From Escherichia phage A4: a DNA stretch of 64,000 nucleotides. Made by a program: the position numbers and the translations under genes. The stretch lies in the sequence record ON286972. The stretch is one strand, 5' to 3'. The number at the start of each line of letters is the position of its first letter. The stretch's first letter is position 1. Under the pieces are notes generated by a model. That model searched no databases, was not told the DNA's origin, and saw only the letters and a list, made by a program, of their open reading frames with translations. Positions 17,322-54,514 of this stretch are shown piece by piece.

Positions 17322-17954
17322 ATGAGTTCAAAAAGAAAACCAATTTCAAAGTACGTTTTTCATCGCCTAGAATATAAGCACTGCATTGCGTATGCACGAG
17401 CCTTAACGGACATATTACCACGTCTGAAAGATGATAAGTTCCTTGAATGTTATGACATGCGTTTTCATAACAATGTTCTTGAGTACATAGAATCAGATGA
17501 TAGTGAGTTGAATGAAGTATGGCTTGATTTCAGTCCTAGTGGTTTAGATAAAAATAGAGTTGGTAATTTGGGACCATTTTTTACGCACTGCTTGAACTTC
17601 GATTTGTCAGATAAAACATTAGTACTGGACAGTAATGAGGTACTTAGATTAAACCTCAATGATATGGATTATTCAGAAGAATCATTCTTTCAATATAGTT
17701 TATTATATGAACCGAATGATTTATTATATACTATTGTTTTCCCATATCTACATGAGCACCTTAAAGGTACTAAAGTTCAAAGAGCAGACATTGCCTTTAG
17801 TTTAGTAAATTTATTCAAGTACAGTGATGTGTTCAAAGAAATATGTATTGAAGGTGGTTACTTCGATGACCTTGCTGATTTGAATAACATGGCGTTTGAA
17901 AATGATAATTATTTTAACGATACCTATATAGGCGGTTCGAGGATAATGAAATGA
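17322..17954 (+). CDS. hypothetical protein, FQxS-motif paralog family
   Basis: Motif SFFQYSLLYEPND. Confidence 0.55.
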   Translation: MSSKRKPISKYVFHRLEYKHCIAYARALTDILPRLKDDKFLECYDMRFHNNVLEYIESDDSELNEVWLDFSPSGLDKNRVGNLGPFFTHCLNFDLSDKTLVLDSNEVLRLNLNDMDYSEESFFQYSLLYEPNDLLYTIVFPYLHEHLKGTKVQRADIAFSLVNLFKYSDVFKEICIEGGYFDDLADLNNMAFENDNYFNDTYIGGSRIMK

Positions 17955-18502
17955 GTCTCCCATTAACAATAAACCCAGTACTAAAAGATCTATCTAAAGT
18001 TATTATGAACTTTTTTCCTATTGTACTACAAGATATAAAACCTATATCAAATCTTGGTTCATGTTATATTCGACACAGTAATAATAAAAACGGTTCTATA
18101 GGTACTTTGTACATTAGTGATAGTTCATTGTTTCTTTTGCACCCTGAGTTATCAGATGAAGAAATACAAGATGGATGCTCGGAGGCACAGAATCGTGTAC
18201 TCACACGTTATCCATATGTGTACATAAGCAGCATTAAACATAAAAATCTTGCTAATAACTTTTGCCAATGCAATCACGGTGATAACTTAATAGATTTAAA
18301 TGTTGACGATGGGGTGCTTTTCCAGTACAGTACTCTATATGATCAGTTAACAATGGATATCATTGAGTTGGATAAGTTAGTGCGTGATTACATCCCTGAT
18401 GGTTTCTATCTTACAATGGATCTTAATGTACTGAATTCCGTAATGGAACAAGGCACTCTACCAAACATTCTGAGAGACTTACGAGCATTTAAAAGACCCT
18501 GA
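17951..18502 (+). CDS. hypothetical protein, FQxS-motif paralog family
   Basis: Motif VLFQYSTLYDQL. Confidence 0.55.
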   Translation: MSLPLTINPVLKDLSKVIMNFFPIVLQDIKPISNLGSCYIRHSNNKNGSIGTLYISDSSLFLLHPELSDEEIQDGCSEAQNRVLTRYPYVYISSIKHKNLANNFCQCNHGDNLIDLNVDDGVLFQYSTLYDQLTMDIIELDKLVRDYIPDGFYLTMDLNVLNSVMEQGTLPNILRDLRAFKRP

Positions 18503-18516
18503 TGGGTCTTTTTTCG
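18494..18516 (+). terminator. rho-independent terminator
   Basis: Hairpin AGACCC-tgat-GGGTCT followed by T6, overlapping stop of 17951..18502. Confidence 0.6.
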
Positions 18517-18524
18517 TTTATAGG

Positions 18525-18553
18525 TTGACATTAGTAATGTAGAATGTTAGAAT
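18525..18553 (+). promoter_or_regulatory. sigma70-like promoter (TTGACA-17-TAGAAT)
   Basis: Hexamers in intergenic region upstream of 18585. Confidence 0.4.
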
Positions 18554-18584: not shown

Positions 18585-19133
18585 ATGGACAGCATTGTAA
18601 ATATTATTGAATGCATGATTTATATTTTTAAAAACAGTCCTGATAATGAGACTGTTAATTTTGAGTTAGGTGAATTAAATATCAACCCAAAAGAATCTCC
18701 ATCAGTATATTCTAATATTACATTGTTCATTAGTGGTTTAGGTTATGTCGTAAAGATCATTAATGCAACACAACGTAGACAAGAATACAAGATGGAAATT
18801 CTACGCGGAGATAGTGAAATTCGTCTATATAATGTATCACGCTACACTAAGATACTGGTAAAACATTCTTATGAAGATGACGAGAAGTTAGCTGTAGCTA
18901 AAATTGATTCAAACACTTTCAAAGAACAAATGTTCATGGCTGCTATGTCATATGATCAATTAACTTATAATAAGCTAGAAATGGGTTATAAATTACTTAG
19001 GTTATTAGAAGATCATTATGAAATTACAATTATGGACAAATTGCTTACCAAAAGCCAAGAGGAACTAGAGAAAATGCATTTGTTATTAAAAAAATATATT
19101 GATGATAATTTAAATTATGGAGAAGTACGTTGA
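18585..19133 (+). CDS. hypothetical protein, FQxS-like (degenerate motif)
   Basis: Motif position reads [13 protein letters not shown]. Confidence 0.5.
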
Positions 19134-20542
19134 AAAGTAATTTAGAAAATATACGCAAAAAAGCCGATAATTTAGTACTATGTTGTATAGGGGCTTTATT
19201 TGCTGTTACTTTAGTTTCCGGTGTTGTTCATGGTAGTTTTATTATTGCACTTATCGGTGCAGTTTTATTATTAGTAATGCTAACTCCTTTACTATTTGTT
19301 GAAAGTAATGCATTCACTCGAACGTTATTAAGTATAAATGTGATGTGCTGGAGTGCGTTACTAATACATCTTGGCTTAGGGATGGTGGAATGGCACTTTA
19401 CAGTTTTTGTCTTTTTAAGTTTATTGATTGTATGGCGTGACTGGCGTTGTGTATTAGCAGGTTCAGTACTGATAGCAATACATCATTTATTATTTGGATT
19501 GTTGCAGGGTGCTGGAATTCCAATATTATTCGTGTTTTCTTTTCACCATATTTCGTTATGGCACATTATAGAGCACGCAATATATGTAGTAGTACAGGCA
19601 ATAGTTCTGATGTACGTTGCGTACATTATGGAGAAAGATGCAAATGAAGCAGATGAAATTCAACGAATTGCAAGATCAGTGAATTCTGAAGACGGCAATA
19701 TTACTTTAGAAATACAAAATAATCATTTCAACTCCGAATTTGCACAGACTTTTAGTAAAACAATATCAGCTATGCGTGAGGCAATTGAACAAGTACAAAT
19801 TACAGTTCAGTCAATGAAAAGCAACTCCTATCATCTCGAAAGTAAAAGTAATGATTTAGCTTTCAGAACTGAAACACAAGGACAGGCACTCACTCAAATC
19901 GCTGCTGCTATGGAAGAATTAAGTGCTACATCTGCAAATACATCTGATAACTCCAATACTGCAAAAAGTATGGTTAAAACTACAAAAGAATCCAGTACTA
20001 ATGCAATTGAAAGTATTAATAATTGCAAAGAGCAGATGAATAGAATTAAGGAAGATTCTAATGCTATAGTTGCTATACTCAAAAATATAGAAACTATTGC
20101 TTTCCAGACTAATATTCTTTCTTTAAATGCAAGCATTGAGGCTGCTAAAGCGGGTGAACATGGACGTGGATTCTCTGTTGTTGCACAGGAAGTTCGTAAC
20201 TTAGCAATGAAATGTGATACATGTAGTAAAGAAATTAAAGAAATCGTTGATAACTCCGTAAAAAACAACAACCAAGGAATTGAACAAATCAACGAGACAG
20301 CAAGTGATATTGATTCTATTGTAAAAAATGTTGATTCTCTCTTGCAGTTCATTGATGATTTAGCTATAATGGCTGAACAACAAAGTATTGCAATCCTTCA
20401 GGTCACTGAGAGTGTTAATATGATGGACCGTTCAGTACAGCAAAATGCGGAGCATGTCAAGGACACAATGCTGATGGTAGACAATCAACAGTCTGAAGTA
20501 CATGCTTTACAAAAAGCCACTTCGATTTTTAACGTGAAATAA
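19130..20542 (+). CDS. methyl-accepting chemotaxis protein-like membrane sensor
   Basis: C-terminal [37 protein letters not shown] matches the MCP signalling-domain core; N-terminal ~170 aa has 6-7 hydrophobic helices with paired His; TTG start with GGAG RBS. Confidence 0.85.
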
Positions 20543-20548
20543 TTTTAA

Positions 20549-20576
20549 AGCCAGGGTATTGACTCTGGCTTTTTTC
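20549..20576 (+). terminator. rho-independent terminator
   Basis: Hairpin AGCCAG..CTGGCT followed by TTTTTTC directly after MCP stop. Confidence 0.5.
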
Positions 20577-20615
20577 TTTGCTATTATTTTAATATTATTT
20601 AACCGAGGATATCAT

Positions 20616-21170
20616 ATGGACAATTACCTATTAATCTTACAAATTTACAACGAACTGGGAAAACTTCTTGAAACGTGTAATTCACCGGGACGTAAATTAA
20701 GAATCGGTTTCGATTATGAAATTGAATACACAGGAGAGGGTATTGCAACGCAGCAGATGTTCACAGAAGAAAATAAAACTATTCTGTGCATTTACCCACA
20801 TGAAGGTGATGAGGAAGACTGTGTTGTTGATTTTTCATATGACAGTTCTTGGGCTTTTATTTCACGTAATCCTCGAATGAAAGAGGCAGTGGATTACAAA
20901 GAACCATCATATGATCCTATTGCGTTGTTCAGTACTGAGAATTTAGAAGAACAAAATTTCCAGAGTTCTGTAACTCACGATAAATTAATCACTGATGCAC
21001 TTACGATTGAAGCTTTAGCACGTAACTATAAATTTGATTTCAATCTCAATAATTATTATATGTCATATAGTGCAACAGCATCATTACTCACTGATGATCA
21101 ATTAGTAGTATTACTCAAGGACTTGAAAAACTACGCACAAACGAGAAAAGAACATGAAAACACTAATTGA
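20616..21170 (+). CDS. hypothetical protein, FQxS-motif paralog family
   Basis: Motif QNFQSSVTHDKL; ATG 20616 downstream of terminator preferred over track start 20559. Confidence 0.55.
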   Translation: MDNYLLILQIYNELGKLLETCNSPGRKLRIGFDYEIEYTGEGIATQQMFTEENKTILCIYPHEGDEEDCVVDFSYDSSWAFISRNPRMKEAVDYKEPSYDPIALFSTENLEEQNFQSSVTHDKLITDALTIEALARNYKFDFNLNNYYMSYSATASLLTDDQLVVLLKDLKNYAQTRKEHENTN

Positions 21171-21726
21171 TATTTTTAAAGTACTAGAAGAACTTACTCA
21201 TAAGTTAGATGAACAAAAAAGAACTGAGAATATTTTTCATTACTTCAACAATCCAATGTACCGATTAGTTTTTGATTGCAGTACTTTGTATCGTTATGCT
21301 AATATCCAAATACAACACTGCATTCAACATAAAACCAAAAATATATGGTCAGTTGATGCTTCTTATGTGGCATCAGGCAGAGAGAGTAAATTTCTGGGTT
21401 CAGTTTCTGATTGTAGTCTTACGGTTAATAAACTTAAAGAAACTAACGAATTAATCGTCAGAAATTTGTACGATGATTATTATGATGATGAAGAATATCT
21501 TCATATTGCACCTGAGCTACAAAATCCAGAAGAGCGAGAAGCATATCTTTTCCAGTTGTCGTTGCTTCCTGGTTATGATATGATAGCTAAAGCTGATTTT
21601 GTATATCAACTATCAATGCAACTTGGTAGTGGGGAGTGTTCTGCTTTCAATAATCTATACAATGAAAGTACTGAAACACAAGAAGAATTATTGGAGGAAT
21701 TAAATGCATTTCTCAAATCTTTATAA
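21154..21726 (+). CDS. hypothetical protein, FQxS-motif paralog family
   Basis: Motif YLFQLSLLPGYD. Confidence 0.55.
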   Translation: MKTLIDIFKVLEELTHKLDEQKRTENIFHYFNNPMYRLVFDCSTLYRYANIQIQHCIQHKTKNIWSVDASYVASGRESKFLGSVSDCSLTVNKLKETNELIVRNLYDDYYDDEEYLHIAPELQNPEEREAYLFQLSLLPGYDMIAKADFVYQLSMQLGSGECSAFNNLYNESTETQEELLEELNAFLKSL

Positions 21727-22282
21727 TTACATGTCCGAAGAGTATCAATATTACACTAAGATGGTTTTGAAAGTGAATGCTATTCTTAATAGTGATTTAT
21801 GTAAAACTAAAAAGACATTTAATCTCCCATATATGCGTTTGGCGATTACTAAAGACCAGGAAGGTATGTATGATCATGCAGTAGTTTTGATGAATGATCT
21901 ACGTGTCTTTCTGATAATTAAGTACAATAAAGAAGATTTAACCAATAACGATGGGTACATTAACTACGATTATATTATTGGAGGAAATGCTGAAGTTCCA
22001 GGGACAAGTGAATTTGCAGGGATTGTTATTTCAGGTAAAAAAATTCCAAAGATTAATCTTAACAGTAGTACTATAGAAGAAGAACTATTCCAGTTAAGTA
22101 CTATGTACAGTACTAACGAATTGGATTTATTACTTTTCAGTACAATCGTCAATCATGAACTGGATAAGAAAGACAAATACTGTCCATTACAACAAATTGT
22201 TCATCGTTTTAAACGTAGTGAATTTAAAAGAATTCATGAAGGTCTGGACAGTCTTATCAACAATACTGGGGAGTTCTCATGA
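21704..22282 (+). CDS. hypothetical protein, FQxS-motif paralog family
   Basis: Motif ELFQLSTMYSTNE. Confidence 0.55.
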   Translation: MHFSNLYNYMSEEYQYYTKMVLKVNAILNSDLCKTKKTFNLPYMRLAITKDQEGMYDHAVVLMNDLRVFLIIKYNKEDLTNNDGYINYDYIIGGNAEVPGTSEFAGIVISGKKIPKINLNSSTIEEELFQLSTMYSTNELDLLLFSTIVNHELDKKDKYCPLQQIVHRFKRSEFKRIHEGLDSLINNTGEFS

Positions 22283-22839
22283 AATATAGTCTTTACAGTA
22301 GAGGAAAGTTTCTTGAGAAGTTCATTGAAGATTGTGTAGCTGCACTGAGTTTAATTCGTGAAGGTGAATACATTAAAGTCAATCACACTGTACTAAGAGA
22401 TCTTAATTTTTTTCTGAGTGGTGATTTGAATAATGATATGCACTTCACAATAACGTACAACCACAAAGATATCATTGAAATCAATACACAACAACGACAC
22501 ATAAAAGAATACACCCGATTACGCAATACCAAGACAAAGCGTGTAGTAATCAAAAAAGGTGATGTAGAGTTGATGTGTAAAGATAGTACTGCAATAGATA
22601 TCAGTACTTACTTCGATAATGAAGAAGATATGGATTGTGATTGCTTCCAGAAGAGTTTAATTATTGATGATCCGTATGTACTGTACGGTGCAGTACTGGC
22701 TCCGTTCTGTCAGAAGAACTTACCAGATGGATGTACGGTTGAATTGAACTTGACAGAACTCATGAATGATGATATATTTGAGTACATGAGTACTAACTCC
22801 AAGGCAATGATTGAACATATTAAGGCAATCCAATGTTAA
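22279..22839 (+). CDS. hypothetical protein, FQxS-motif paralog family
   Basis: Motif DCFQKSLIIDDPY. Confidence 0.55.
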   Translation: MKYSLYSRGKFLEKFIEDCVAALSLIREGEYIKVNHTVLRDLNFFLSGDLNNDMHFTITYNHKDIIEINTQQRHIKEYTRLRNTKTKRVVIKKGDVELMCKDSTAIDISTYFDNEEDMDCDCFQKSLIIDDPYVLYGAVLAPFCQKNLPDGCTVELNLTELMNDDIFEYMSTNSKAMIEHIKAIQC

Positions 22840-40883: not shown

Positions 40884-41183
40884 ATGGACAAAATACAATT
40901 AGTTAGTAGTACGATAACAATGCTCGCAGATGCTGCCAGATGGAGCAGTGGTGGTTCCGTTAGTACTATGCTCAGTATACTCACGCAATACACCTATACC
41001 TGCAATGCAATGTTATATGGCAAGGAAGTTGAAATTGATGATCCCTATGGAATTCCCATATCATATGACCGAGGTGTAATAAAAAGGGTTACTATGAGAC
41101 TAACATATCATCCATATTTTGTAGTAGAACTTCCTGATGGAAAATTAAGAGAATATGTTGCTAAAAGGTTAAAACTAAAATGA
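40884..41183 (+). CDS. hypothetical protein
   Basis: ORF-track ORF. Confidence 0.45.
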   Translation: MDKIQLVSSTITMLADAARWSSGGSVSTMLSILTQYTYTCNAMLYGKEVEIDDPYGIPISYDRGVIKRVTMRLTYHPYFVVELPDGKLREYVAKRLKLK

Positions 41184-41758
41184 ATATTGTAGAATTAAGT
41201 ACTAAGCTGATTACTATGCGTAACGAGTGGTACAATTGGTATTATAACGGTACTGACATGGATTTTTCAAAATATCCATTTATGGAATCAGGATGTGATT
41301 CAAGATACCGCTGGTTGAGTAAAGATGATTCTGGTTTACATATTCGAGTTGATGATAGTGGTCAGGGAATTATAAAAGATTTACTTCAAGTTGAAGAACT
41401 CGTCCATGATGAGTGGTGTGATAATGATCCATACCTAGGAAATATAATTTATGTAACTGAAGATGATTGTATATTCGTCATTCAGCGTCATGGTGATTCT
41501 ATGTTTTATATAGCAGACAGCAGTACACCTGAAGGTGCAGCATCAGATGGTCTTATTCCTAAGATTAATATATTAGATTTTGGCTTACCTGAGCACTTCC
41601 AGATGAGTACTCTATTCGATATTCCACCGTTTGAGTTCTTTGAAGAATTTAAATTGTACTACAGTGATCTTCAGAAATTGAGTACCGAGAGTCGTATTGA
41701 AATAACTGTCAGGTACATGGACGGGGCAAAATTAACCGACACGGGGATAGAATTTTGA
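41180..41758 (+). CDS. hypothetical protein, FQxS-motif paralog family (outlying member)
   Basis: Motif EHFQMSTLFDIPPFEF. Confidence 0.55.
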   Translation: MNIVELSTKLITMRNEWYNWYYNGTDMDFSKYPFMESGCDSRYRWLSKDDSGLHIRVDDSGQGIIKDLLQVEELVHDEWCDNDPYLGNIIYVTEDDCIFVIQRHGDSMFYIADSSTPEGAASDGLIPKINILDFGLPEHFQMSTLFDIPPFEFFEEFKLYYSDLQKLSTESRIEITVRYMDGAKLTDTGIEF

Positions 41759-42444
41759 TTAAAGATTTAGATAGAATTTTATATGTACTAAGGGGTGTAA
41801 TTACTTTACAACCACAGATTAACCGCATGGAGAGAGCCTTTGAATTAAAATCAAGAGAAACTCCATATTCACATATATCAAATGTAGTTGGATCATTCTG
41901 CTCTGAAGACTCTCCTTACGATATTTGTGTATGTGAAGTACAGCCCAGTAATGATCTTGGTTTTGCAATCTTCGATAAAAATCAAGTACTGGTCAGTATG
42001 TTTCAGTGTAATAATCCTTTCTGGAAAACATGCCTGTACCCTGATTGGGCTATGCTTGACCCTACGAATAGTAAGATTAAAGTATATGACTCTAAGAATG
42101 AAGAAGTTGTTATTGATTTAGATGAATCAATGACAGAGGAAGAACACTTCCAGCTTATGATGATGCGTGCAATGCCAGACTATGAAGCAATGATTAACAC
42201 CGTACAATACATTAAGGATACGATGAGATCATTGCGTACACATGAGTTTTGTCATCCAGTATCGTATGAACATTTGGATTTAGATTTCAGTACTATCAAG
42301 TTTAAAGATAGTGTTATTGAATATATCCAAGAGAACACTAAATTTGATTTTATTAGTACTATGATTAATAATCCTGATACAAATTTCAGGCATCAGTACA
42401 ATGAATCTTTGTCTGGTGGTCGAGATACCAGTTGGTGGAAATAA
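41755..42444 (+). CDS. hypothetical protein, FQxS-like (divergent)
   Basis: Motif EEHFQLMMMRAMPDYE; TTG start. Confidence 0.45.
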   Translation: MIKDLDRILYVLRGVITLQPQINRMERAFELKSRETPYSHISNVVGSFCSEDSPYDICVCEVQPSNDLGFAIFDKNQVLVSMFQCNNPFWKTCLYPDWAMLDPTNSKIKVYDSKNEEVVIDLDESMTEEEHFQLMMMRAMPDYEAMINTVQYIKDTMRSLRTHEFCHPVSYEHLDLDFSTIKFKDSVIEYIQENTKFDFISTMINNPDTNFRHQYNESLSGGRDTSWWK

Positions 42445-42445
42445 T

Positions 42446-42709
42446 ATGAATATCCAAGATAGATTGCAATTGTTGCACACACTTGAAGAAGCTGCTTTTG
42501 AACTTGTTAATAAAATTGCACAAGAACTCCCAAAAGGAACCAACGTTCGTGTTCGTGAAATGGATTATTTAACGGGAGAAATTGAAGAAAAAGTTCTAAC
42601 AGTGATCAAAGTAACATACTATGAATCAGAGTTATCAATTCAATGTAAGTCAGATAATGGTTACGTTTCCTACTATGGCACAGATGTAGATATAGAGGTA
42701 ATTAGATGA
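42446..42709 (+). CDS. hypothetical protein
   Basis: ATG 42446 just after upstream stop; 87 aa. Confidence 0.45.
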   Translation: MNIQDRLQLLHTLEEAAFELVNKIAQELPKGTNVRVREMDYLTGEIEEKVLTVIKVTYYESELSIQCKSDNGYVSYYGTDVDIEVIR

Positions 42710-43851
42710 GTAATTTACGAGAAATATACAATGATTTAATGGAACTATGTGAATCTAATGATGCATTTTTCTATATAGATCACACAAGCCCTGGTGGTGG
42801 TTTATACCGTGTATTCACCTATCGTCTGGCATCTTATACCGATTTCACAAATAAAAATGCACTAGAAACTCGTGGTTCTATGTGGGAAATCGATTCCAAC
42901 GGAATTATGATTCGTTGTGCAGCACGTACAATGAAAAAGTTCTTCAATGCATATGAAAACCCGTACACAATGTTCAGTACTGATACGACATGTGATGATA
43001 TTGCAGTTGTAATGCCTAAACTTGATGGTTCTATCATCAGCACATTCCGTGATAACGATGGTGAAATCCGTTGCAAATCACACACTTCGTTATCTTCTGA
43101 CCATGCTATTAACAGTACTCGACTTTTGAACGAGAACCAAAATCTCTATCAATACATTGATGAAGCAGACCGTTTGGGCTATACTGTGAATCTGGAATAC
43201 ACAAGCCCAGAGTATCGAATTGTGTTACCATATCAGGTGGAACAGTTATTTGTTCTTAACGTTCGTCATCGTATTAGTGGTGAGTTGTTATGCGGTAAAG
43301 CACTACGTGATAAGTTTCCATGCCTTTCACAGTACAGTACTAATATGACAGGTAATGACATTCATCATACATTCCCGATTATGCCTACATTTAAAGAGTC
43401 AATCGATAAAGTACGTTCTATGATTGACATTGAAGGTTTTGTGTGTATAATGAAAGATGGTACAATGTGCAAAATCAAAACTGACTGGTATTGCTCTTTG
43501 CATTTAACAAAAGATTCCATTCTTATTGATTCCCATTTATATGAAGCTGTACTGACTGGTGCAAGTGATGACTTAAAACAATTGTTCAGTACTGATACAT
43601 ATGCAATGGATAAGATATTAAGAATGGAACAATTGGTATTTTCGTGCTATAATGCTTTACAAGATGAGGTAGAAAGCTTCGTCCATGCATACAAGCACTT
43701 AGAGCGAAAGGAATTCGCTCAAAAGGTTCAGCAAGATTTACCTAATGTATTGAACCGACAAGGCTTGGCCTTTGCGTTGTACAATGGCAAAAGTGTCGAT
43801 TATAAAGAGACTTTACTAAAGTACTACAAAGATGTACTAAAGGATTTTTAG
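42706..43851 (+). CDS. rnlA: RNA ligase 1
   Basis: Collinear with T4 Rnl1 as recalled: N-terminal NDLMELCE, nucleotidyltransferase KxDG motif (KLDGS), EGFVCIMKDG..KIKTDWY, GASDDLK. Confidence 0.9.
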   Translation: MSNLREIYNDLMELCESNDAFFYIDHTSPGGGLYRVFTYRLASYTDFTNKNALETRGSMWEIDSNGIMIRCAARTMKKFFNAYENPYTMFSTDTTCDDIAVVMPKLDGSIISTFRDNDGEIRCKSHTSLSSDHAINSTRLLNENQNLYQYIDEADRLGYTVNLEYTSPEYRIVLPYQVEQLFVLNVRHRISGELLCGKALRDKFPCLSQYSTNMTGNDIHHTFPIMPTFKESIDKVRSMIDIEGFVCIMKDGTMCKIKTDWYCSLHLTKDSILIDSHLYEAVLTGASDDLKQLFSTDTYAMDKILRMEQLVFSCYNALQDEVESFVHAYKHLERKEFAQKVQQDLPNVLNRQGLAFALYNGKSVDYKETLLKYYKDVLKDF

Positions 43852-43880
43852 TACTAACTAGCCCAGCACAAGGAGAAGTG

Positions 43881-44135
43881 ATGGCTAAACCTAAGTATAA
43901 AAATGATGGTTCCCTTTCTCCTACTGAGTTCAGGAAAATACAACAAGAAATCGATGATTTACAGCACAAACGCTCAATGAAAGGTGTGAAGATTAGTAAG
44001 AAGCGAATCGAGAATACTTTTGGGTGTAGTAGTACTGAATATAAGAAGAAAAGGAAACCAAAGGATGTTAAGCCGAGAATACATGATGTAACTCGCTATA
44101 CATCGAAACGTGAAAATAAATTCGATCCACTATAA
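43881..44135 (+). CDS. hypothetical basic protein
   Basis: AGGAG RBS then ATG 43881; Lys/Arg-rich 84 aa. Confidence 0.5.
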   Translation: MAKPKYKNDGSLSPTEFRKIQQEIDDLQHKRSMKGVKISKKRIENTFGCSSTEYKKKRKPKDVKPRIHDVTRYTSKRENKFDPL

Positions 44136-44144
44136 GGAGTTCAT

Positions 44145-44381
44145 ATGAAAGTTGAAGTTCAGCATAGTATTGTTCAGGATATGTCAGTGGTTAAGTTTCT
44201 TTCTCTGAAAGATTACTTCAGATGTATCAAGTTCCTTGAAGAATCTCAATTACAGTGGACCCCCTTAAAGTACAGTTCATCCAATGACACTGCTAGTATT
44301 CGTTGTGATGAAGCTGTACTTGTAAAAATCTCCAAGCGATTTGGAGTTGGGAAATACAATGAAAAACAATCATTCAAGTGA
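44145..44381 (+). CDS. hypothetical protein
   Basis: ORF-track ORF with GGAG upstream. Confidence 0.45.
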   Translation: MKVEVQHSIVQDMSVVKFLSLKDYFRCIKFLEESQLQWTPLKYSSSNDTASIRCDEAVLVKISKRFGVGKYNEKQSFK

Positions 44382-44613
44382 TTTGTTATATTATAAAGTA
44401 CTATCAGAATGTTTGACGGATATATTGTACCGTGAGAGTAATACTCTACGTGCAAAATATATTAACAAAAGAGTACGTTATAAATCATCTTATGATGGGA
44501 TGAATGTTTATGGTAAAATCACTAATGTATATGTAGATGATGATTTTACATTGAATATCATTGTCGATAATTGTATTGATATCTCAATTGATGATATTAT
44601 TGAGGTAATCTAA
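44359..44613 (+). CDS. hypothetical small protein, YIGK-like
   Basis: ..RAKYINKRVRYKSS; start adjusted. Confidence 0.45.
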   Translation: MKNNHSSDLLYYKVLSECLTDILYRESNTLRAKYINKRVRYKSSYDGMNVYGKITNVYVDDDFTLNIIVDNCIDISIDDIIEVI

Positions 44614-44924
44614 TGAATAAAGCATTAAAAGAACTTAATAATTTAATGAATGCAGAAATTGAATTAACTAATACTATTTCTGAAATTGTTCATGATATGA
44701 TTACACAATACAAGAAATCACTCATTGGTAAGAAAGTTGAATGCTGGGATTACAACACTAAAACATGGTTCGAAACTATCATTAGTGATGTTAATGTTAA
44801 ATTTCATGTAGTTACTCATCACATTTCTGACGAGTGCTATGTAGAAGTAACTATAGGACACAACACGAGACATGAACGTTTTTCGTGGTACAATCTAAAG
44901 AATGTGAAATTTATTGAGGATTAA
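44613..44924 (+). CDS. hypothetical small protein, YIGK-motif paralog family
   Basis: ..YKKSLIGKKVECWDY. Confidence 0.5.
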   Translation: MNKALKELNNLMNAEIELTNTISEIVHDMITQYKKSLIGKKVECWDYNTKTWFETIISDVNVKFHVVTHHISDECYVEVTIGHNTRHERFSWYNLKNVKFIED

Positions 44925-45857
44925 ATGCCAACTATTACACTAACAGTTGGATTGCCAGGATGTGGTAAAACCACGTGGGCAGTGCAAGAAATTAAAAAAG
45001 CAAAGTCCAAGACTATCAACATCAATCGTGATGATATTCGAGAGTCTATGGCTGGGTCACATGATGCTTATAAATTCACTGATGCGAACGAGAAGTACGT
45101 AACTAATCAACAGTTCAGTGCAGCAAACGCAGCAGCAGCGAATGGATGGAACATTATTGTGTCCGATACGAACCTGAAACAAGGTTTTCGTGATGAATGG
45201 AAACGTTGGGCTAAAGATAATGGCTACGACTACAAAGAAAAGAACTTCTACGAAGATTTTGTACCGAATGAAGACCGTGGTGCAGATGTTCATGAATTCT
45301 TTAAGATTAAGGAATTCGTGAAGCTCTGTAAGAAACGCAACCTTCTTCGTGTGCGTTCAGTACAAGATGAAATCATTGACACTATGGCAGATACGTACTA
45401 TTATAGTAAGGCGATGCACATTGGTTACTATGGTAATGCACGTGAAGCTGCTATCATTGTTGATATCGACGGTACTCTTGCTCATAAGTGGGGACGTAAC
45501 CCGTTTGATGAAAGTACTGTCCTTCAGGATACACCAGATGAAGAAGTAATTCTGTCTGTCATTGCTGAGGCTGTTTTCCATAAGCGTAAGGTAATCGTCA
45601 TGAGTGGGCGTACTGAAGGGTGTCGTGCTGATACTGAACAGTGGCTTAAGAATTGGGGCATTCCCTACGATGTATTGTTAATGCGAGCTATCGATGATAA
45701 ACGTCCTGATGATGTTGTCAAATTCGAGTTGTATATGAATAACGTTGTTAATCATTACGATGTTAAGAAAGTATTTGATGACAGGGCCGCCGTTGTATTC
45801 ATGTGGCGTAAGCTACTAGGCTTGAAAGTATTTCAGGTGGAACCTGGACTATTTTGA
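44925..45857 (+). CDS. pseT: polynucleotide 5'-kinase/3'-phosphatase
   Basis: Walker A GLPGCGKTTWA, INRDD kinase motif, phosphatase DxDGT motif (VDIDGTLA), C-terminal KVFQVEPGLF collinear with T4 Pnk as recalled. Confidence 0.9.
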   Translation: MPTITLTVGLPGCGKTTWAVQEIKKAKSKTININRDDIRESMAGSHDAYKFTDANEKYVTNQQFSAANAAAANGWNIIVSDTNLKQGFRDEWKRWAKDNGYDYKEKNFYEDFVPNEDRGADVHEFFKIKEFVKLCKKRNLLRVRSVQDEIIDTMADTYYYSKAMHIGYYGNAREAAIIVDIDGTLAHKWGRNPFDESTVLQDTPDEEVILSVIAEAVFHKRKVIVMSGRTEGCRADTEQWLKNWGIPYDVLLMRAIDDKRPDDVVKFELYMNNVVNHYDVKKVFDDRAAVVFMWRKLLGLKVFQVEPGLF

Positions 45858-45865
45858 TTATTACA

Positions 45866-45895
45866 AAGGGATCAGTACTGATCCCTTTTCTTTTA
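45866..45895 (+). terminator. rho-independent terminator
   Basis: Palindrome AAAGGGATCAGT/ACTGATCCCTTT followed by a T-run. Confidence 0.6.
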
Positions 45896-45909
45896 ATTTA
45901 GGTGATATA

Positions 45910-46170
45910 ATGGATAATAGTTATGATGTACATTTCAAACAATGCCAGTTGGTTTTACACTCCCTAATGGAAGAGTTGCGAATCAAGTACATAGGCAAAA
46001 TTGCTACATGTTTATCAACTGGAAGACGTGGGCAAATTGTAGAGATTTATTATTCTCCACTTAGTGATGAAATTAAAATAAAAGCTAAAATATTCCTAAC
46101 TGGATCTAACAATTTCTTGGGTGAACATATGGTAAAAATTATCTCTGAATTATCGATAACGGATGAATAA
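45910..46170 (+). CDS. hypothetical small protein, YIGK-motif paralog family
   Basis: ..LRIKYIGKIATCLSTGRRGQIVEIYY. Confidence 0.5.
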   Translation: MDNSYDVHFKQCQLVLHSLMEELRIKYIGKIATCLSTGRRGQIVEIYYSPLSDEIKIKAKIFLTGSNNFLGEHMVKIISELSITDE

Positions 46171-46172
46171 AC

Positions 46173-46439
46173 ATGAATATTAATATAGATTTCCAATTTG
46201 TTAATTCACATATTCAAGTACTGAAAAATTTAGTAAAGCAACTATCAGAAAAATATAAAGATACATATGTTAAATGTGTTTATGATACAAGTGACTGGGA
46301 ACGCATTATTAAAATTGATTCAGTATATCTTGATACTAACAATAATATAGTTGTATCTGGCGTTGATATGTATGGGCATAGATACCAATTCACAACGCGA
46401 GCAACAATAACTACAGTGGATGGATATGAATACGAATGA
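46173..46439 (+). CDS. hypothetical small protein, YIGK-like
   Basis: ..LSEKYKDTYVKCVYD. Confidence 0.45.
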   Translation: MNINIDFQFVNSHIQVLKNLVKQLSEKYKDTYVKCVYDTSDWERIIKIDSVYLDTNNNIVVSGVDMYGHRYQFTTRATITTVDGYEYE

Positions 46440-46725
46440 ATTCCAAGCATTATTGAAAACATTATATCTTCTTAAAGAAGAATCTCTTGCAATGTATAAT
46501 GAAAAACAATACAAGTTTGAAGAACAACTCATTCATTTTCATGATGAATATCTTGCCTTTTTGAATAAAAAATACTCAAATGTTCAGTGCAAATATCGAG
46601 GTAGTGATGTTATTATTACCGAAATAGAATCAAGTACTTACGGATATCCATACCTTTGTTGCAAATATATCCCAAGTGATATAACATTTCGCTCAAGAAT
46701 ATATTCGAGGTTTATTTTTTCATGA
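46426..46725 (+). CDS. hypothetical small protein, YIGK-like
   Basis: ..FLNKKYSNVQCKYRGSDVIITEIE; start adjusted. Confidence 0.45.
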   Translation: MNTNEFQALLKTLYLLKEESLAMYNEKQYKFEEQLIHFHDEYLAFLNKKYSNVQCKYRGSDVIITEIESSTYGYPYLCCKYIPSDITFRSRIYSRFIFS

Positions 46726-47003
46726 ATAATGATTCATTGAAGTTTTTTTATTATCATTATCGTATTTTACGCAGTTTATATTTTTCAGAATCCGATGAAA
46801 GATTACTAACATCATTATCAGTACTGATGGATAATTACGAGAACGAATTGTCTAAATTGGTTTTTGGTGTCAATGTTCTAGATGATACCGATTTAACATG
46901 GACAATTATTGAAGTGGCGACCTGGAATGGTAATATTTTGTACAGGTGCGAACGAGCAGGTTTTTTATGGGATGCCACATATGACGAAATTAGAATTGTA
47001 TGA
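46722..47003 (+). CDS. hypothetical small protein, YIGK-like
   Basis: ..LSKLVFGVNVLDD. Confidence 0.45.
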   Translation: MNNDSLKFFYYHYRILRSLYFSESDERLLTSLSVLMDNYENELSKLVFGVNVLDDTDLTWTIIEVATWNGNILYRCERAGFLWDATYDEIRIV

Positions 47004-47280
47004 CAGGCAAGTGAAATTGATAAGAGATACTCGTCGTTTCTTTCATACTCAATTAGTAGATCCATGTTATGATATTTCCGATTTCCTTGAAACCTATCTC
47101 CTTGATCTAACTACACCACTGCTTAAAAAATACGTAGGCACAAAAGCTATATATCTTGGAAGAGAAGTTGAAATTACCAACATATCATATTCTTATGGGG
47201 CATACATGTATACGGCAAAATCTGATAATGGACAAAGATATTATGCAATACGATCAAGAGAACTTACGATTATTGGATAG
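46981..47280 (+). CDS. hypothetical small protein, YIGK-like
   Basis: ..LLKKYVGTKAIYLGREVEITN; start adjusted. Confidence 0.45.
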   Translation: MTKLELYDRQVKLIRDTRRFFHTQLVDPCYDISDFLETYLLDLTTPLLKKYVGTKAIYLGREVEITNISYSYGAYMYTAKSDNGQRYYAIRSRELTIIG

Positions 47281-47572
47281 GCATCTTGCTATTCTTATCG
47301 ACCTTGTGATGGAAAGTGATGTAAAAATTTTTGAAAGTAGATTTCTTGAGGATTATAAAACTGAATTGCAAGAACTGTACAAAGGTAAAAAAGTATTACT
47401 TAGTACTGGTGACTATGGTAAAATTGAGTACGTGTATTATGAATGGAAAAAGGTTATATATTTTATAAAAACCAAAATAAAATACCAAAATAAAACAAGA
47501 ACCTATAAAGCATATTACGATTCAAATGAGATAGAGATTATATATGACCAACACGTTAATAACAAAAAGTGA
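47243..47572 (+). CDS. hypothetical small protein, YIGK-like
   Basis: ..LQELYKGKKVLLSTGDYGKIEY; start adjusted. Confidence 0.45.
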   Translation: MQYDQENLRLLDRHLAILIDLVMESDVKIFESRFLEDYKTELQELYKGKKVLLSTGDYGKIEYVYYEWKKVIYFIKTKIKYQNKTRTYKAYYDSNEIEIIYDQHVNNKK

Positions 47573-47867
47573 ATTAGATTATTTGAATTATATAAACAGA
47601 TACTTTCTGATTCTATATAATATACTTCTTGAAGAACAATGCACTAAATCAAACCATCAGTTATATAACTATATTAACTGTATAATTAGTGAAATATATG
47701 AATCATTGGAAAAGAGATTTAAGTACAGAACTATTAAGTGCGAAGATGATATTGTATATATTCATGGTGTTTTTGGTACAGGATATGGAATATTCGTTGA
47801 TTATAAAATACACCCATTTGATCCGTACATAGAAAATAGTATGTACATAGAAGAGATTGAACTATGA
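47544..47867 (+). CDS. hypothetical small protein, YIGK-like
   Basis: ..LEKRFKYRTIKCEDD. Confidence 0.45.
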   Translation: MTNTLITKSELDYLNYINRYFLILYNILLEEQCTKSNHQLYNYINCIISEIYESLEKRFKYRTIKCEDDIVYIHGVFGTGYGIFVDYKIHPFDPYIENSMYIEEIEL

Positions 47868-48181
47868 CACAAGAAGAATATAATAAATTAATAATGTACG
47901 AGAATCATTTTAATTATTGTCTGAAATGGTTATTGTACATTGATAACGTTGAGATGGATATGTACAGAAAAGAGGTGAATAAACGTGTTAAAGATTTCTA
48001 TTACGAATTGACTGATCTTTTTTATAATAATGTAGTATATGAAGCAAATACCAGTCGTGATTATGACCTTTATATCAAGCAAATATGGGGTACTGACTAC
48101 GGTCTGATGATTGATTGCAGTACTGGTCCTAATATAGACAGACCCAGTACTACATTGTATCTGGATGAGATTTTCATATGA
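47864..48181 (+). CDS. hypothetical small protein (array member)
   Basis: ORF in array, ATGA overlap. Confidence 0.45.
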   Translation: MTQEEYNKLIMYENHFNYCLKWLLYIDNVEMDMYRKEVNKRVKDFYYELTDLFYNNVVYEANTSRDYDLYIKQIWGTDYGLMIDCSTGPNIDRPSTTLYLDEIFI

Positions 48182-48480
48182 ATGAACTATTACTTTGTCA
48201 TAAAACATACATTATGCTATTCAGAACGTGCCATGATATGCGAATTGAAGGTATACTAGACTACCCAACTATGATGATTAACTTCAGGGTGTTAATGGAT
48301 TCATATTCACAATCTGTCATTGATGCATTTGAAGGTAGAGAAATAAAGTTCAAAAATGCCAGGACAAATAATGAGCTATGTGATACAATTAAATCAGTGG
48401 GGATTTCGGTTCCAAATGTGTACGTAATCCCATTGATGTACGGAAGAGTAGTATCCACTAACGAAATTATTAGTATATGA
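48178..48480 (+). CDS. hypothetical small protein (array member)
   Basis: ORF in array. Confidence 0.45.
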   Translation: MNELLLCHKTYIMLFRTCHDMRIEGILDYPTMMINFRVLMDSYSQSVIDAFEGREIKFKNARTNNELCDTIKSVGISVPNVYVIPLMYGRVVSTNEIISI

Positions 48481-48776
48481 TTAAAATATTATATGAAGCA
48501 GAAGAAACATATAAACTTCTGTGGGAAACTTTTATTTTTGACAAATACTATAATAGAACTGAATGGTTAGAGGTAAGTAAAATATATCTTCAAATTTTAA
48601 ATGATTATTTTTGTCCGTTCGTTGCTGAATGTAAAAATAATCCAATTGAAGAAATTAATATAATCGAAATAGTAGATGGGTTTGGTGCGTGGTTGATATA
48701 CCAAGACAACTATCACTTTTCTAATTATATCGAAGATATCGGTAAAATAATTGTAATTAAAGGAGTCATACTATGA
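48477..48776 (+). CDS. hypothetical small protein (array member)
   Basis: ORF in array. Confidence 0.45.
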   Translation: MIKILYEAEETYKLLWETFIFDKYYNRTEWLEVSKIYLQILNDYFCPFVAECKNNPIEEINIIEIVDGFGAWLIYQDNYHFSNYIEDIGKIIVIKGVIL

Positions 48777-49378
48777 TTTATGCACTATACGTACTATACG
48801 TACTTGGTCTGGTTATTGGTTGGTTTTTGGCAAAATCTTACAACCGTAATGCACTGGCATACACAGTATTTGGTATTATTTTTACGCCAGTACTAGAACT
48901 AGGTTTACTCATTATTATGGGTCGCCGTGACATGACACCAGTCATTGACGATAATCGTGATAAAGCAGTACATGATGTACCCGTTTTTGAAGGATATACG
49001 CCAACTTTAACAGTTGATGACGTTTACATTGATGGTGCTGAAGAAGTTAAATCAGTTCAGGAAGAAGTTGAAGAAGTTCCAGTTAAAGAAGAACCACAAC
49101 CAAAAGCACCAACAACTAAAACAAAAGCAAAAACTTCTAAGAAAACGAAAGGTCGCAAGACTAGCACTAAAAATACCAAAAAAACCAGTACAACTCGCAA
49201 AAGCACTAAAACTGATAAGGAAGCATCTTCCAGTACTGATGATGGTACAAGCACTGTTCTACTGACAGCAGCAACAACTGCCGCAATTATCAGTACTTCA
49301 TCCTATAGCGACTCATCTTCCTCTTATGATAGTGGCTCTTGTGATAGTTCAAGCTCAAGTTCAGGAAGCTGTGATTAA
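48773..49378 (+). CDS. membrane-anchored low-complexity protein (acidic, K/T-rich and S/C-rich segments)
   Basis: Two N-terminal hydrophobic helices, then EEVKSVQEEVEEVPVKEEP, TKTKAKTSKKTKGRKTSTK, and SSSYDSGSCDSSSSSSGSCD. Confidence 0.5.
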   Translation: MIYALYVLYVLGLVIGWFLAKSYNRNALAYTVFGIIFTPVLELGLLIIMGRRDMTPVIDDNRDKAVHDVPVFEGYTPTLTVDDVYIDGAEEVKSVQEEVEEVPVKEEPQPKAPTTKTKAKTSKKTKGRKTSTKNTKKTSTTRKSTKTDKEASSSTDDGTSTVLLTAATTAAIISTSSYSDSSSSYDSGSCDSSSSSSGSCD

Positions 49379-49722
49379 TGGTTCCGTTATCATCTGAACT
49401 AAGGTACTTCGAATCTCTCCTTGATCTTCAATCAGAATTCGTTAGTGCCTTAAAAAATAAATTAATAGGCAAAAAAGTAAAATTCACTCAAGAGTATATT
49501 GACCACATCAATAAGGCTAAGGAGGATGAAGTAGATTCTGACTGGATTTATTGTGATGATGAAGCTTCTCATATCAACGAAAATACAGTTATGTTTATTA
49601 CTTTGTTGCGAGTAAAGAATTCATCAATCTATGTTGATGTGGAATATGAAAATCCAAAAAGTTCTGAATGGTACGGATTCACTTACCGTTTAGATCGTTT
49701 AGAACTAATAGAAGAGGAATAA
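49378..49722 (+). CDS. hypothetical small protein, YIGK-motif paralog family
   Basis: ..LKNKLIGKKVKFTQEY. Confidence 0.5.
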   Translation: MVPLSSELRYFESLLDLQSEFVSALKNKLIGKKVKFTQEYIDHINKAKEDEVDSDWIYCDDEASHINENTVMFITLLRVKNSSIYVDVEYENPKSSEWYGFTYRLDRLELIEEE

Positions 49723-49965
49723 ATGATTTTATTTTTTGCTTTGTATGGTGTAGGAGTACTGAGTACATTTTTGAGTACTTTTCTTATCATCAATTGGGGT
49801 TCTTTTAAAGATACCCCTACCACAATGATTAATATTAGTACCTGCTCTATGTTATCAGTACTGTGGCCTGTGTCGTTGGTGTATCTTTTCATTTCAATCT
49901 GTAAAGATTTTTACGATACACTAACAAAATTCAAGAAGAAGAAACATGACAAAGACGGAAATTGA
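49723..49965 (+). CDS. small membrane protein
   Basis: 80 aa, two or three hydrophobic helices, basic C-terminus. Confidence 0.45.
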   Translation: MILFFALYGVGVLSTFLSTFLIINWGSFKDTPTTMINISTCSMLSVLWPVSLVYLFISICKDFYDTLTKFKKKKHDKDGN

Positions 49966-50200
49966 ACAGTTAAAGATGTTACAATCGTTATCTGATGATT
50001 TTGTCCAACGTGCTAAGCACAAATATATTGGTCAAGAAATTCTTCTTAAACACTCCAGAGGTTGGCAAAAAATATGCATAAGAGATATGGGAACATATCA
50101 TGGTGATGTGCGATATTACGTAGATTGCTATGTTAATGACCAAATTGCCAATACTCAAGTTGTCACCTATGATAAAATTATATGGATTAAAGAACAATGA
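49946..50200 (+). CDS. hypothetical small protein, YIGK-motif paralog family
   Basis: ..RAKHKYIGQEILLKH. Confidence 0.5.
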   Translation: MTKTEIEQLKMLQSLSDDFVQRAKHKYIGQEILLKHSRGWQKICIRDMGTYHGDVRYYVDCYVNDQIANTQVVTYDKIIWIKEQ

Positions 50201-50940
50201 AACATTTCTTAGAAGTAACAGTTCCTGATGAAAAAGATTTGTATATAGTAGGAGACATTCACGGTAATGCAAAACTATGGGAACATACCAAGAAAGAATT
50301 TGGTATTACTCCTGAAGATTATGTATTCAGTTTAGGCGATTTAATTGACAGAGGTGAGCAAAGTGCTCACCTTTTGTTTGAGTTTTTATTCGCTGAGAAT
50401 CGATATATGATCATGGGCAATCATGAATCGATGTGTATTGATTCTGCAACTCATCGTGACTGGTATCATTGCTGGACACAGAATGGGGGCGATAAGTTCC
50501 TGGAAGAAGTTGGTGTATCAGGAGTGGAATTCTTCCGTCAGTACTTGGACCAGCTACCTATGATTATCCAAATCAATCACAGAGGACTCAAGATTGGTCT
50601 TGTACATGCAGGTGTAGATCTGAAGTACAATGACTGGAATAAGTTCATTACTGGGACAAAATCAATGTCCAGTGATACAATTGAGTCATGCCTATGGGAC
50701 AGAAAGACATTTGATTTCTGTAAAGCCAACAACGTCTTTAATGCATCACGTATTACCAACGTAGATTATGTACTTAGTGGGCATACTGCCGTGTTTGATC
50801 CCCTCATTTATGGTAACCGTATCTGGATTGACAGTCAGTTTCTTACTGGTGATTTGACTATTGCTACCCCACAAGGTGGTAAGATGCGTTATTTGCGTAA
50901 AGAAAAAGACGAATATTCATTTAGTCGATTCAAAAGGTAA
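50197..50940 (+). CDS. Ser/Thr protein phosphatase-like metallophosphoesterase
   Basis: GDIHG, GDLIDRG and GNHE calcineurin-like motifs. Confidence 0.75.
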   Translation: MKHFLEVTVPDEKDLYIVGDIHGNAKLWEHTKKEFGITPEDYVFSLGDLIDRGEQSAHLLFEFLFAENRYMIMGNHESMCIDSATHRDWYHCWTQNGGDKFLEEVGVSGVEFFRQYLDQLPMIIQINHRGLKIGLVHAGVDLKYNDWNKFITGTKSMSSDTIESCLWDRKTFDFCKANNVFNASRITNVDYVLSGHTAVFDPLIYGNRIWIDSQFLTGDLTIATPQGGKMRYLRKEKDEYSFSRFKR

Positions 50941-50945
50941 TTATT

Positions 50946-51224: not shown

Positions 51225-51233
51225 GGATATAAA

Positions 51234-53067: not shown

Positions 53068-53076
53068 GGGAATATA

Positions 53077-54495: not shown

Positions 54496-54514
54496 ACATT
54501 TATTGGAGGTAATT

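Follow-up and report, generated by a model that had tools for sequence, protein, structure and literature searches.

An intact six-helix chemoreceptor gene in the accessory region of the jumbo phage Escherichia phage A4

The DNA considered here (the 'window') is a stretch of 64,000 nucleotides from the genome of Escherichia phage A4 (sequence record ON286972), and the gene in question is an open reading frame at 19130-20542 on the plus strand, encoding 470 amino acids, whose product is a member of the methyl-accepting chemotaxis protein (MCP) superfamily. An earlier note, made from the sequence alone, had recognised an intact, phage-borne MCP at this position, and that recognition stands: the Pfam profile MCPsignal (PF00015) covers residues 281-434 (E=4.2e-37; 128.1 bits, gathering cut-off 34.6), and the TTG start and unbroken reading frame are kept in six independent assemblies. 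The phage family PHROG 8572 matches residues 140-469 (E=9e-52), and NCBIfam returns generic MCP equivalogs only, far under their cut-offs. The kind of protein is already known, both as an MCP and in its class III topology, and GenBank already labels the A4 protein (USL83455.1; genome 355,528 bp) 'methyl-accepting chemotaxis protein'. What we add is a correction to the phage's affiliation, which is not T4-like, together with an Enterobacteriaceae-type origin, the insertion site, evidence of selection, a 36-heptad (36H) compatibility with the receptors of E. coli, and the recognition of the sensor as part of a large, His-cluster, six-transmembrane (6TM) family that lies outside Pfam and has a predicted cyclase-type fold. 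The gene and the signals around it are as follows.

18491-18512, plus strand: terminator-like hairpin (9-bp stem with four GC pairs, T-run), directly after the open reading frame at 17951-18502, closing the upstream transcription unit.
18525-18553, plus strand: sigma-70-type promoter-like site, TTGACA-17-TAGAAT with a TG extended -10 (11 of 12 consensus matches).
18585-19133, plus strand: open reading frame of 182 amino acids upstream of the MCP gene, a member of a tandem paralogue array (paralogue hidden Markov model, HMM; E=1e-9).
19119-19122, plus strand: ribosome-binding site GGAG, 7 nt 5' of the MCP TTG, taken directly from the sequence.
19130-20542, plus strand: MCP coding sequence, identical to USL83455.1 of Escherichia phage A4.
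20547-20572, plus strand: terminator-like hairpin (11-pair stem, five GC pairs), then TTTCTTTGCT with its T-run, 5 nt after the MCP stop.
20559-20587, plus strand: promoter-like site of the next unit, TTGACT-17-TATTAT with TG (10 of 12 matches), overlapping the MCP terminator.
20616-21170, plus strand: open reading frame of 184 amino acids belonging to the paralogue array (paralogue HMM), without a match in phage 121Q and called as a gene in one related assembly.

The start codon of the MCP gene overlaps the stop of the open reading frame upstream (gtacgTTGAaa), and the ribosome-binding site and terminator that had been ascribed to it are both in place. Within the 82-nt gap between the upstream terminator and the open reading frame at 18585 lies the best promoter-like site of the region; these sites are consensus matches only, of which the region had 16 against 11.8 expected from shuffles. 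Because this likely promoter sits upstream of the preceding open reading frame, the MCP gene is probably the second gene of a two-gene transcription unit, with the 182-residue open reading frame as the first. As a separate observation, at 18491-18553 and 20547-20587 terminator hairpins adjoin or overlap strong sigma-70-like promoters with extended -10 TG elements, and such terminator/promoter pairs divide the accessory array into short, 'cassette-like' transcription units.

Within the protein itself, sequence alignment and AlphaFold2 (AF2) models suggest the following layout, in which the transmembrane helices are numbered TM1 to TM6.

19139-19630, plus strand: predicted six-helix membrane sensor domain, residues 4-167, N-in/C-in (AF2).
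19388-19576, plus strand: conserved polar cluster E87, H89, H118, H119, Q126 and H149, placed in the periplasm-facing half of TM4-TM6 (family conservation).
19631-19789, plus strand: HAMP-shaped linker, residues 168-220, made up of a TM6 extension, an 18-residue connector and a second helix (AF2 and collinearity with Tar/Tsr).
19790-20524, plus strand: kinase-control hairpin of the 36H class, residues 221-465 (gapless alignment to Tsr 269-517).
19913-19918, plus strand: E262-E263, the only perfect methylation consensus, corresponding to Tsr E310-Q311 (Tsr alignment).
20093-20245, plus strand: protein-interaction tip, residues 322-372 (Tsr 370-420), 65% identical to Tsr.

Residues 174-469 align to residues 219-517 of E. 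coli Tsr (6S1K) with three gap positions, all of them within the HAMP stretch; the offset between the two proteins stays at 48 throughout residues ~195-469, and this gapless and constant register places the phage protein in the 36H class, as with the host's own receptors. The two hairpin helices are modelled at residues 203-340 and 342-465, with the turn at residue 341 and a C-terminal arm of 127 amino acids, or ~18 heptads. The stretch that the earlier note had quoted as the core of the MCP signalling domain is indeed the hairpin tip, with the conserved glutamate E343 equivalent to Tsr E391; F373, I377, L380, N381, E385, E391, R394, V398 and E402 (Tsr numbering) are all kept, and the changes V384I and R388K are conservative. 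The residue list for the trimer contacts and the numbering of the methylation sites follow the Tsr literature. Under the consensus [A/S/T/G]2-x2-[E/Q]2-x2-[A/S/T/G]2, E262-E263 is joined by two partial sites, T255-Q256 and Q453-Q454, and the equivalents of Tsr-297 and Tsr-493 are lost.

The likeness to E. coli Tsr and Tar (6S1K, 1QU7) thus takes in a gapless kinase-control module, the tip and its trimer contacts, one methylation consensus in common and a linker of HAMP length after the last TM helix, at ~30% overall identity across the cytoplasmic part; Tsr and Tar, however, carry a periplasmic four-helix-bundle sensor on two TM helices, whereas the phage protein has six predicted TM helices and no such sensor. 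Signalling into the host CheA/CheW arrays, which had been put forward earlier, fits the 36H register and the conserved tip, and judging from these features the receptor would most likely join the host's arrays. We also observe an antisense open reading frame of 152 amino acids (19894-20352, minus strand) inside the hairpin-coding region, probably no more than a side effect of the repetitive, AT-rich sequence that encodes the coiled coil.

The N-terminal ~170 amino acids, described in the earlier note as an integral-membrane domain of 6-7 helices, are predicted to be a six-helix bundle, in keeping with a multi-helix domain though not with a seventh helix. The AF2 model of this domain (57-sequence alignment; pLDDT 93.8, pTM 0.88) has helices at residues 4-33, 37-56, 61-81, 86-102, 105-127 and 143-186 and periplasmic loops of 3, 4 and 15 residues, the 15-residue loop joining TM5 to TM6. 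Every Lys and Arg falls on the side predicted to be cytoplasmic, which implies an N-in/C-in topology, and the modest size of the largest periplasmic loop bears out the claim that a periplasmic ligand-binding domain is lacking. On this model the protein has the topology of a class III chemoreceptor, a class marked by multiple TM helices and the lack of a ligand-binding domain in the periplasm (Lacal et al. 2010, cited in PMC13401364).

With residues 1-189 as query, an exhaustive HMMER search returned 2,696 clusters (50% identity level) at E<=1e-3, of which 545 reach E<=1e-10; the nearest bacterial representative of the domain has E=5e-28. The domain is nearly always N-terminal, in proteins of ~500 amino acids, and 39 of 58 sampled members also carry MCPsignal, some of them with an extra HAMP or GAF domain; a few fusions to PAS and HisKA were found by profile search, and from this set of partners we conclude that it is a modular sensor, used mainly in chemoreceptors. 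No Pfam match falls on the membrane domain in any of the 58 sampled members, and the phage sensor has no match in Pfam, NCBIfam or PHROGs; sequence comparison places the sensor domain in a large bacterial family for which Pfam has no model. The architecture as a whole is, by the same comparison, not unique to phage: it is that of a widespread bacterial receptor family. The source names of family members read only 'methyl-accepting chemotaxis protein' or 'hypothetical', and hold no functional clue.

Seven positions are invariant in the family (G84, H89, F90, F93, A116, H119 and H149) and a further 15 are conserved in at least 90% of members (D13, R64, M72, I79, E87, L96, L99, Y102, D104, W105, H118, L125, Q126, A150 and V153); the phage copy has all seven of the former and 14 of the latter, the exception being Y102, which is replaced by W. 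E87 is present in 98% of members, H118 in 96% and Q126 in 93%, and position 156 is E or Q in 98%. In the model, E87 and H89 lie at the start of TM4, H118 and H119 in the outer third of TM5 and H149 in the outer third of TM6, with D13, R64 and the YRDWR motif at the cytoplasmic face; from these helix positions we infer that the His and Glu residues of TM4-TM6 would form a cluster, with H80 just before it and Q156 just after. The 'conserved His pairs' of the earlier note therefore hold for H118/H119 and for H149, which are invariant or nearly so, and fail for H139/H140, present in only 21-30% of members, and for H145, which is specific to the phage copy. Across the family the TM5-TM6 loop is somewhat His-rich (6.4% His), with at least two His residues in 22 of 57 members.

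The WHFT and HH motifs had brought the MHYT domain (PF03707) to mind; this candidate was rejected, with no Pfam match to it in 58 family members and a probability of 1.3% when the family alignment was compared by hhalign with the MHYT region of a Paraburkholderia MHYT-GGDEF-EAL protein. At one locus of a Paraburkholderia sp. (L009, 6001-9708), a 6TM His-cluster MCP gene lies directly upstream of a same-strand MHYT-GGDEF-EAL gene, such that two different His-bearing six-TM sensors adjoin; this pairing was not seen at other loci and may be coincidental.

In its predicted fold and helix topology the sensor resembles the 6TM modules of class III membrane nucleotide cyclases. Fold comparison gave the paired values 12.9 and 169 against Adenylyl cyclase 9 (6R3Q), 10.8 and 170 against the Diguanylate cyclase ImcA (8WCN), 10.7 and 181 against Adenylyl cyclase 5 (8SL3), and 8.4 and 142 against M. 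tuberculosis Cya/Rv1625c (7YZI). Identity to the cyclase modules is 10-12%, and sequence and profile searches give no link to them; on the model, this is a fold-level resemblance, for which homology is not established. The outputs also differ, the cyclase modules driving a cyclase where the phage sensor would drive an MCP hairpin, and the His cluster is specific to the MCP sensor family, not to the cyclase modules. In Cya, TM4-6 form the dimer interface, and an extracellular cleft there behaves as a cation site whose neutralisation lowers enzyme activity (PMC9433096); ImcA is a 6TM homodimer (PMC10904736), and two further papers report cyclase membrane domains as lipid receptors (PMC11606603, PMC12505454). 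By analogy, and speculatively, the His/Glu cluster that the MCP family carries on TM4-6 could line a periplasm-facing cleft in a dimer. It is because of this cleft analogy that we favour, as the most likely input, a bound or periplasmic transition-metal ion or a redox cofactor, with a membrane lipid as the alternative; this is a guess, and a speculative one.

The only characterised receptor that we found with the layout of the phage protein is HtrVIII (Htr8), the aerotaxis transducer of Halobacterium salinarum, an archaeal protein of 642 amino acids, which matches it in architecture: according to PMC13401364, its N-terminal part contains six TM segments, an MCP module forms the C-terminus and an extracellular domain is lacking, and its His-containing TM segments have been proposed to bind haem (citing Brooun et al. 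1998).

Between sensor and hairpin, the full-length AF2 model (pLDDT 87.9) continues the TM6 helix to residue 184, leaves residues 185-202 non-helical and resumes a helix from residue 203. The linker is collinear with the TM2-HAMP segment of Tar and Tsr, three residues shorter, and as modelled it has the geometry of a HAMP domain (helix, connector of ~14 residues, helix, over ~50 amino acids after the last TM helix). The earlier note had seen no obvious HAMP: it was right in that no profile matches, and yet a HAMP-shaped helix-connector-helix does appear to follow TM6. Geometry by itself does not establish membership of the HAMP family, and as neither Pfam nor hhalign lends support we call the linker 'HAMP-shaped' and not a HAMP domain.

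Full-length homologues (94-99% coverage, 37-40% identity) are found in 483-residue MCPs of Enterobacter, Pseudocitrobacter, Siccibacter and Pantoea, followed at ~31% identity by proteins of Cupriavidus, Paraburkholderia and Aquabacterium. The MCPs of Enterobacter soli, E. wuhouensis, E. chuandaensis, Pseudocitrobacter, Siccibacter and Pantoea (e.g. P0005 and P0012) have the same 6TM His-cluster sensor as the phage protein, a linker of equal length, the motifs FARTFS and MSEQQ and a 36H hairpin, and like the phage protein they end just after VFRF, without the C-terminal pentapeptide of Tsr and Tar. Their genes are GC-rich and chromosomal, whereas the phage copy is AT-rich, encodes a protein 13 amino acids shorter at its N-terminus, has lost the glycine hinge and has extra His residues in the TM5-TM6 loop; one homologue (P0002, seen on three contigs) follows closely on exbBD in a bacterial chromosome. 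A rough neighbour-joining tree puts the phage protein on a long branch, sister to an Enterobacteriaceae/Erwiniaceae clade whose linker and hairpin motifs it retains without gaps; the nearest bacterial homologue stands at only 38% identity, yet the conserved residues of the family are kept in the phage copy.

The gene has a GC content of 34.5% and a third-position GC content (GC3) of 25.5%, matching its phage neighbours, as against 59% and 68% for an Enterobacter-type gene; amelioration is thus complete, which argues for long residence in phage. Among six alleles there are 29 polymorphic codons with synonymous changes only and 6 with replacements (11 and 0 in the sensor domain), and pairwise pN/pS lies between 0.03 and 0.10: the gene is under strong purifying selection. 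An intact frame, phage-like GC and GC3 and low pN/pS together identify it as an old acquisition that is actively maintained, rather than a newly acquired fragment, a pseudogene or a product of misassembly; the possibility that it was a recent host-derived piece, which the earlier note had named as one that would refute its reading, is thereby set aside.

Sought in other phages, as had also been proposed, a full-length homologue was found neither in 50,697 phage records (megablast and tblastn) nor in 121Q, and scans of IMG/VR with the protein and with a sensor-domain profile returned no relative of either; most MCP matches in the phage collection are mislabelled bacterial contigs. Nor did protein searches find a full-length homologue in E. 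coli, the only E. coli-labelled copies being the phage gene, and Enterobacter sensor-domain DNA had no match in 5,426 complete E. coli genomes (by blastn only, a weak test). It follows that the phage would add a sensory input that its host does not seem to have.

Phage A4 had been taken for a T4-like phage. Positions 50-63 kb of the window have 78-86% nucleotide identity to 350-385-kb Escherichia phages such as UE-S1, 121Q (Asteriusvirus) and Turkey3, and A4 has been described as a Rak2-like relative of PBECO4 with 591 open reading frames (PMC9355613); it is a Rak2/Asteriusvirus-like jumbo phage, its closest relatives lying among these and not in the Tevenvirinae. At least six independent assemblies, complete contigs of ~355 kb among them, carry the MCP gene between the same neighbours, and complete A4-like genomes are present as 352-359-kb contigs in the E. 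coli isolate assemblies GCA_036253495.1 and GCA_011911785.2; several more E. coli protein accessions at NCBI carry the same gene. The phage is in culture and does not lyse its host in broth, according to the paper describing it, which does not mention chemotaxis (PMC9355613). A4-like contigs in E. coli assemblies, together with the lack of lysis in broth, suggest a carrier state or pseudolysogeny.

The open reading frame at 18585-19133 is the orthologue of 121Q gene 395 (tblastn to 121Q 21957-22355, E=1e-6), and that at 21154-21726 is the orthologue of gene 396, the two being neighbours in 121Q; the MCP gene and one small open reading frame therefore constitute an insertion into an otherwise collinear array, in the most variable part of the genome. 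The array itself consists of ~40 tandem, strongly diverged paralogues of 110-210 amino acids at 1600-28400 (plus strand), plus 41180-42444, with a common motif in the C-terminal half such as 'LFQYS(L/T)'. Built up iteratively from seven seeds, an HMM collects 42 array open reading frames at E<1e-3, a count uncorrected for profile drift during the iterations; BLASTP detects no more than small subclusters. In gene order the array is collinear with genes ~367 to 409 of 121Q, every one of them annotated as hypothetical, and protein identity to 121Q is 25-40% inside it, rising to 80-90% at its right edge (26.6-29.4 kb).

Synthesising these findings, we favour, with moderate confidence, an explanation in which the gene encodes a functional class III chemoreceptor that the A4 lineage captured from an Enterobacteriaceae-type host and has kept. 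Within an array of small accessory genes, the MCP gene would come second in a short unit that runs from promoter to terminator, transcribed probably by the host RNA polymerase from the sigma-70-like promoter. We suggest that the protein would insert N-in with six helices and then dimerise, such that TM6 could pass conformational signals through the HAMP-shaped linker into the 36-heptad hairpin, whose tip may be close enough to that of the host receptors to form mixed trimers of dimers and to bind CheW and CheA. Through the receptor, CheA activity, and hence the running and tumbling of the infected cell, might then follow whatever the six-helix sensor detects. Taken together, this suggests, and does not prove, that phage A4 changes the swimming of infected cells; we only infer when the gene is expressed, that the receptor enters arrays, what it binds and how the phage gains from it. 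That broth cultures are not lysed and that whole phage genomes turn up in E. coli assemblies are both in keeping with a long-lasting infection, during which a change in host behaviour could bring an advantage.

A number of observations weigh against a functional receptor of this kind. Full methylation consensus is present at only one of the five Tsr positions, and the protein lacks the C-terminal linker and the NWETF pentapeptide tether of Tsr and Tar; the glycine hinge (Tsr G340, G341 and G439) is replaced by A, I and A at residues 292, 293 and 391, and with all three glycines gone signalling may be biased or locked. In the linker, HAMP (PF00672) gives no Pfam match at E<=1, and hhalign of the family linker against 57 canonical HAMP segments returns a probability of 1.3%. 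In the sensor, no cofactor motif was found, its profile has no match among PDB sequences (no solved homologue), and Foldseek returned nothing significant in PDB or BFVD. Neither did the loci of bacterial homologues that were examined offer conserved gene neighbours as a clue to the ligand: exbBD lies beside the gene in one Enterobacter-like genome, Cupriavidus has TctC and a second MCP there, Paraburkholderia has an MHYT-GGDEF-EAL gene, and the remaining loci have unrelated genes.

A bolder form of the favoured explanation holds that A4, a virulent jumbo coliphage with a drawn-out, non-lytic course, gives E. coli a working receptor of a sensory type that the host does not seem to have, a six-helix membrane module whose periplasm-facing His cluster senses a metal, a redox cofactor or a lipid; that this receptor slots into the host's arrays; and that the resulting taxis steers infected cells, and the phage with them, towards conditions or locations good for phage production or spread. 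This we regard as possible though doubtful. Were it true, a virus would be manipulating how its host navigates by means of a sensory gene. That phages reprogram host metabolism is established; to our knowledge, no virus-encoded receptor is known to manipulate the navigation of its host directly.

It is unlikely, in our estimation, that the protein serves instead as a 'jammer' or kinase lock, which would enter the host arrays by way of its conserved tip and sit fixed in one output state regardless of stimulus; it would thereby turn off or bias the chemotaxis of infected cells, for example by constant smooth swimming that would disperse them or by tumbling that would hold them in place. The four incomplete methylation positions and the want of a CheR/CheB tether would suit such a role, as would the lost glycine hinge, which could bias or stiffen signalling and which is no shared trait, since the Enterobacter homologues keep the G340/G341 pair and have a Gly next to the third hinge position. 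Those same homologues, however, likewise lack the Tsr-493 site and the pentapeptide, so that these two absences are family traits and not phage decay, and a sensor that retains every family-invariant residue, with only synonymous change among its polymorphic codons, is hard to square with a mere membrane anchor. If the receptor proves inert, or merely jams arrays, the finding shrinks to an accessory-gene curiosity that GenBank already annotates.

We consider it improbable that the gene acts outside chemotaxis, as a sensor of membrane state, proton-motive force or metal, or as a scaffold, working with phage-encoded partners in the timing of infection or lysis or in superinfection exclusion, with the MCP hairpin as an interaction rod. 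The atypical, non-lytic growth of A4 in broth, the location of the gene among ~40 uncharacterised phage paralogues, and the run of conserved polar residues (E87, H89, H149, H118/119 and E/Q156) from the periplasmic face to mid-membrane would all be in keeping with it; but the best-conserved part outside the sensor is the very tip that contacts CheA, CheW and trimer partners, in 36H register with the host receptors, the 64 kb searched of the 355-kb genome show no CheW- or CheY-like gene, and we found no precedent in the literature.

A neutral passenger, captured by accident and drifting in a hypervariable accessory region, is very improbable: the surrounding array is the most variable part of the genome, and the gene is missing from 121Q, from the other phage records searched and from IMG/VR, but drift of this sort sits poorly with the pN/pS values, with a frame intact in six alleles, with a base composition that has had time to ameliorate and with family residues retained at so low an identity. 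An assembly chimera or bacterial contamination, suggested by the many mislabelled contigs in the phage collection, is refuted by the recurrence of the same flanks in independent assemblies and complete contigs, by the phage-like GC and by flanking genes that are phage paralogues syntenic with 121Q.

Returning to a functional, captured receptor as our favoured explanation, the case is an unusually tractable one: E. coli, the host, is the reference organism for chemotaxis, the Tsr/Tar heptad register suits standard FRET (Förster resonance energy transfer), tethered-cell and localisation assays, and the phage is in culture. The predicted fold of the sensor would, in addition, link chemoreceptors to the debated 'receptor' membrane domains of adenylyl cyclases.

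Other phages carry MCPsignal genes of different build. Vibrio phage vB_VmeM-Yong XC31 encodes a protein of 610 amino acids with dCache, HAMP and MCPsignal domains (QAX96201; locus L006, 1187-3019), and Microcystis phage MaAM05 a HemAT-like protein of 508 amino acids with Protoglobin and MCPsignal domains (WMU93215; locus L007, 1796-3322); both match the A4 protein over its hairpin only, at 33-37% identity. Together with PHROG 8572 they are examples of MCPsignal genes in large phage genomes like that of A4, and none has the 6TM His-cluster domain. Both proteins are annotated only as 'hypothetical protein', and the neighbourhood of the MaAM05 gene holds thiL and ispD, which are unusual in phage. 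A preprint lists MCP, CheR and CheY genes among Nitrosospira phages; beyond this, our reading on phage chemoreceptors, on Asteriusvirus and chemotaxis and on six-TM chemoreceptors turned up bare annotations and no functional study.

Finally, no CheY- or CheW-like gene was detected at E<=1 in the 64-kb window of this 355-kb genome, with hand-entered query sequences. Further along the window, at 42706-55306 on the plus strand, lies a cluster of genes for nucleic-acid repair and processing, assigned through PHROG matches:

42706-43851, plus strand: RNA ligase / tail-fibre attachment catalyst-like protein.
44925-45857, plus strand: polynucleotide kinase.
50197-50940, plus strand: NinI-like Ser/Thr phosphatase.
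53077-54495, plus strand: ATP-dependent DNA ligase.
54449-55306, plus strand: metallophosphoesterase.

The sole large minus-strand gene of the window follows at its right-hand end:

60245-62413, minus strand: protein of 722 amino acids with approximately seven Ig-like repeats (PHROG 215, 'structural protein with Ig domain', E=7e-168).

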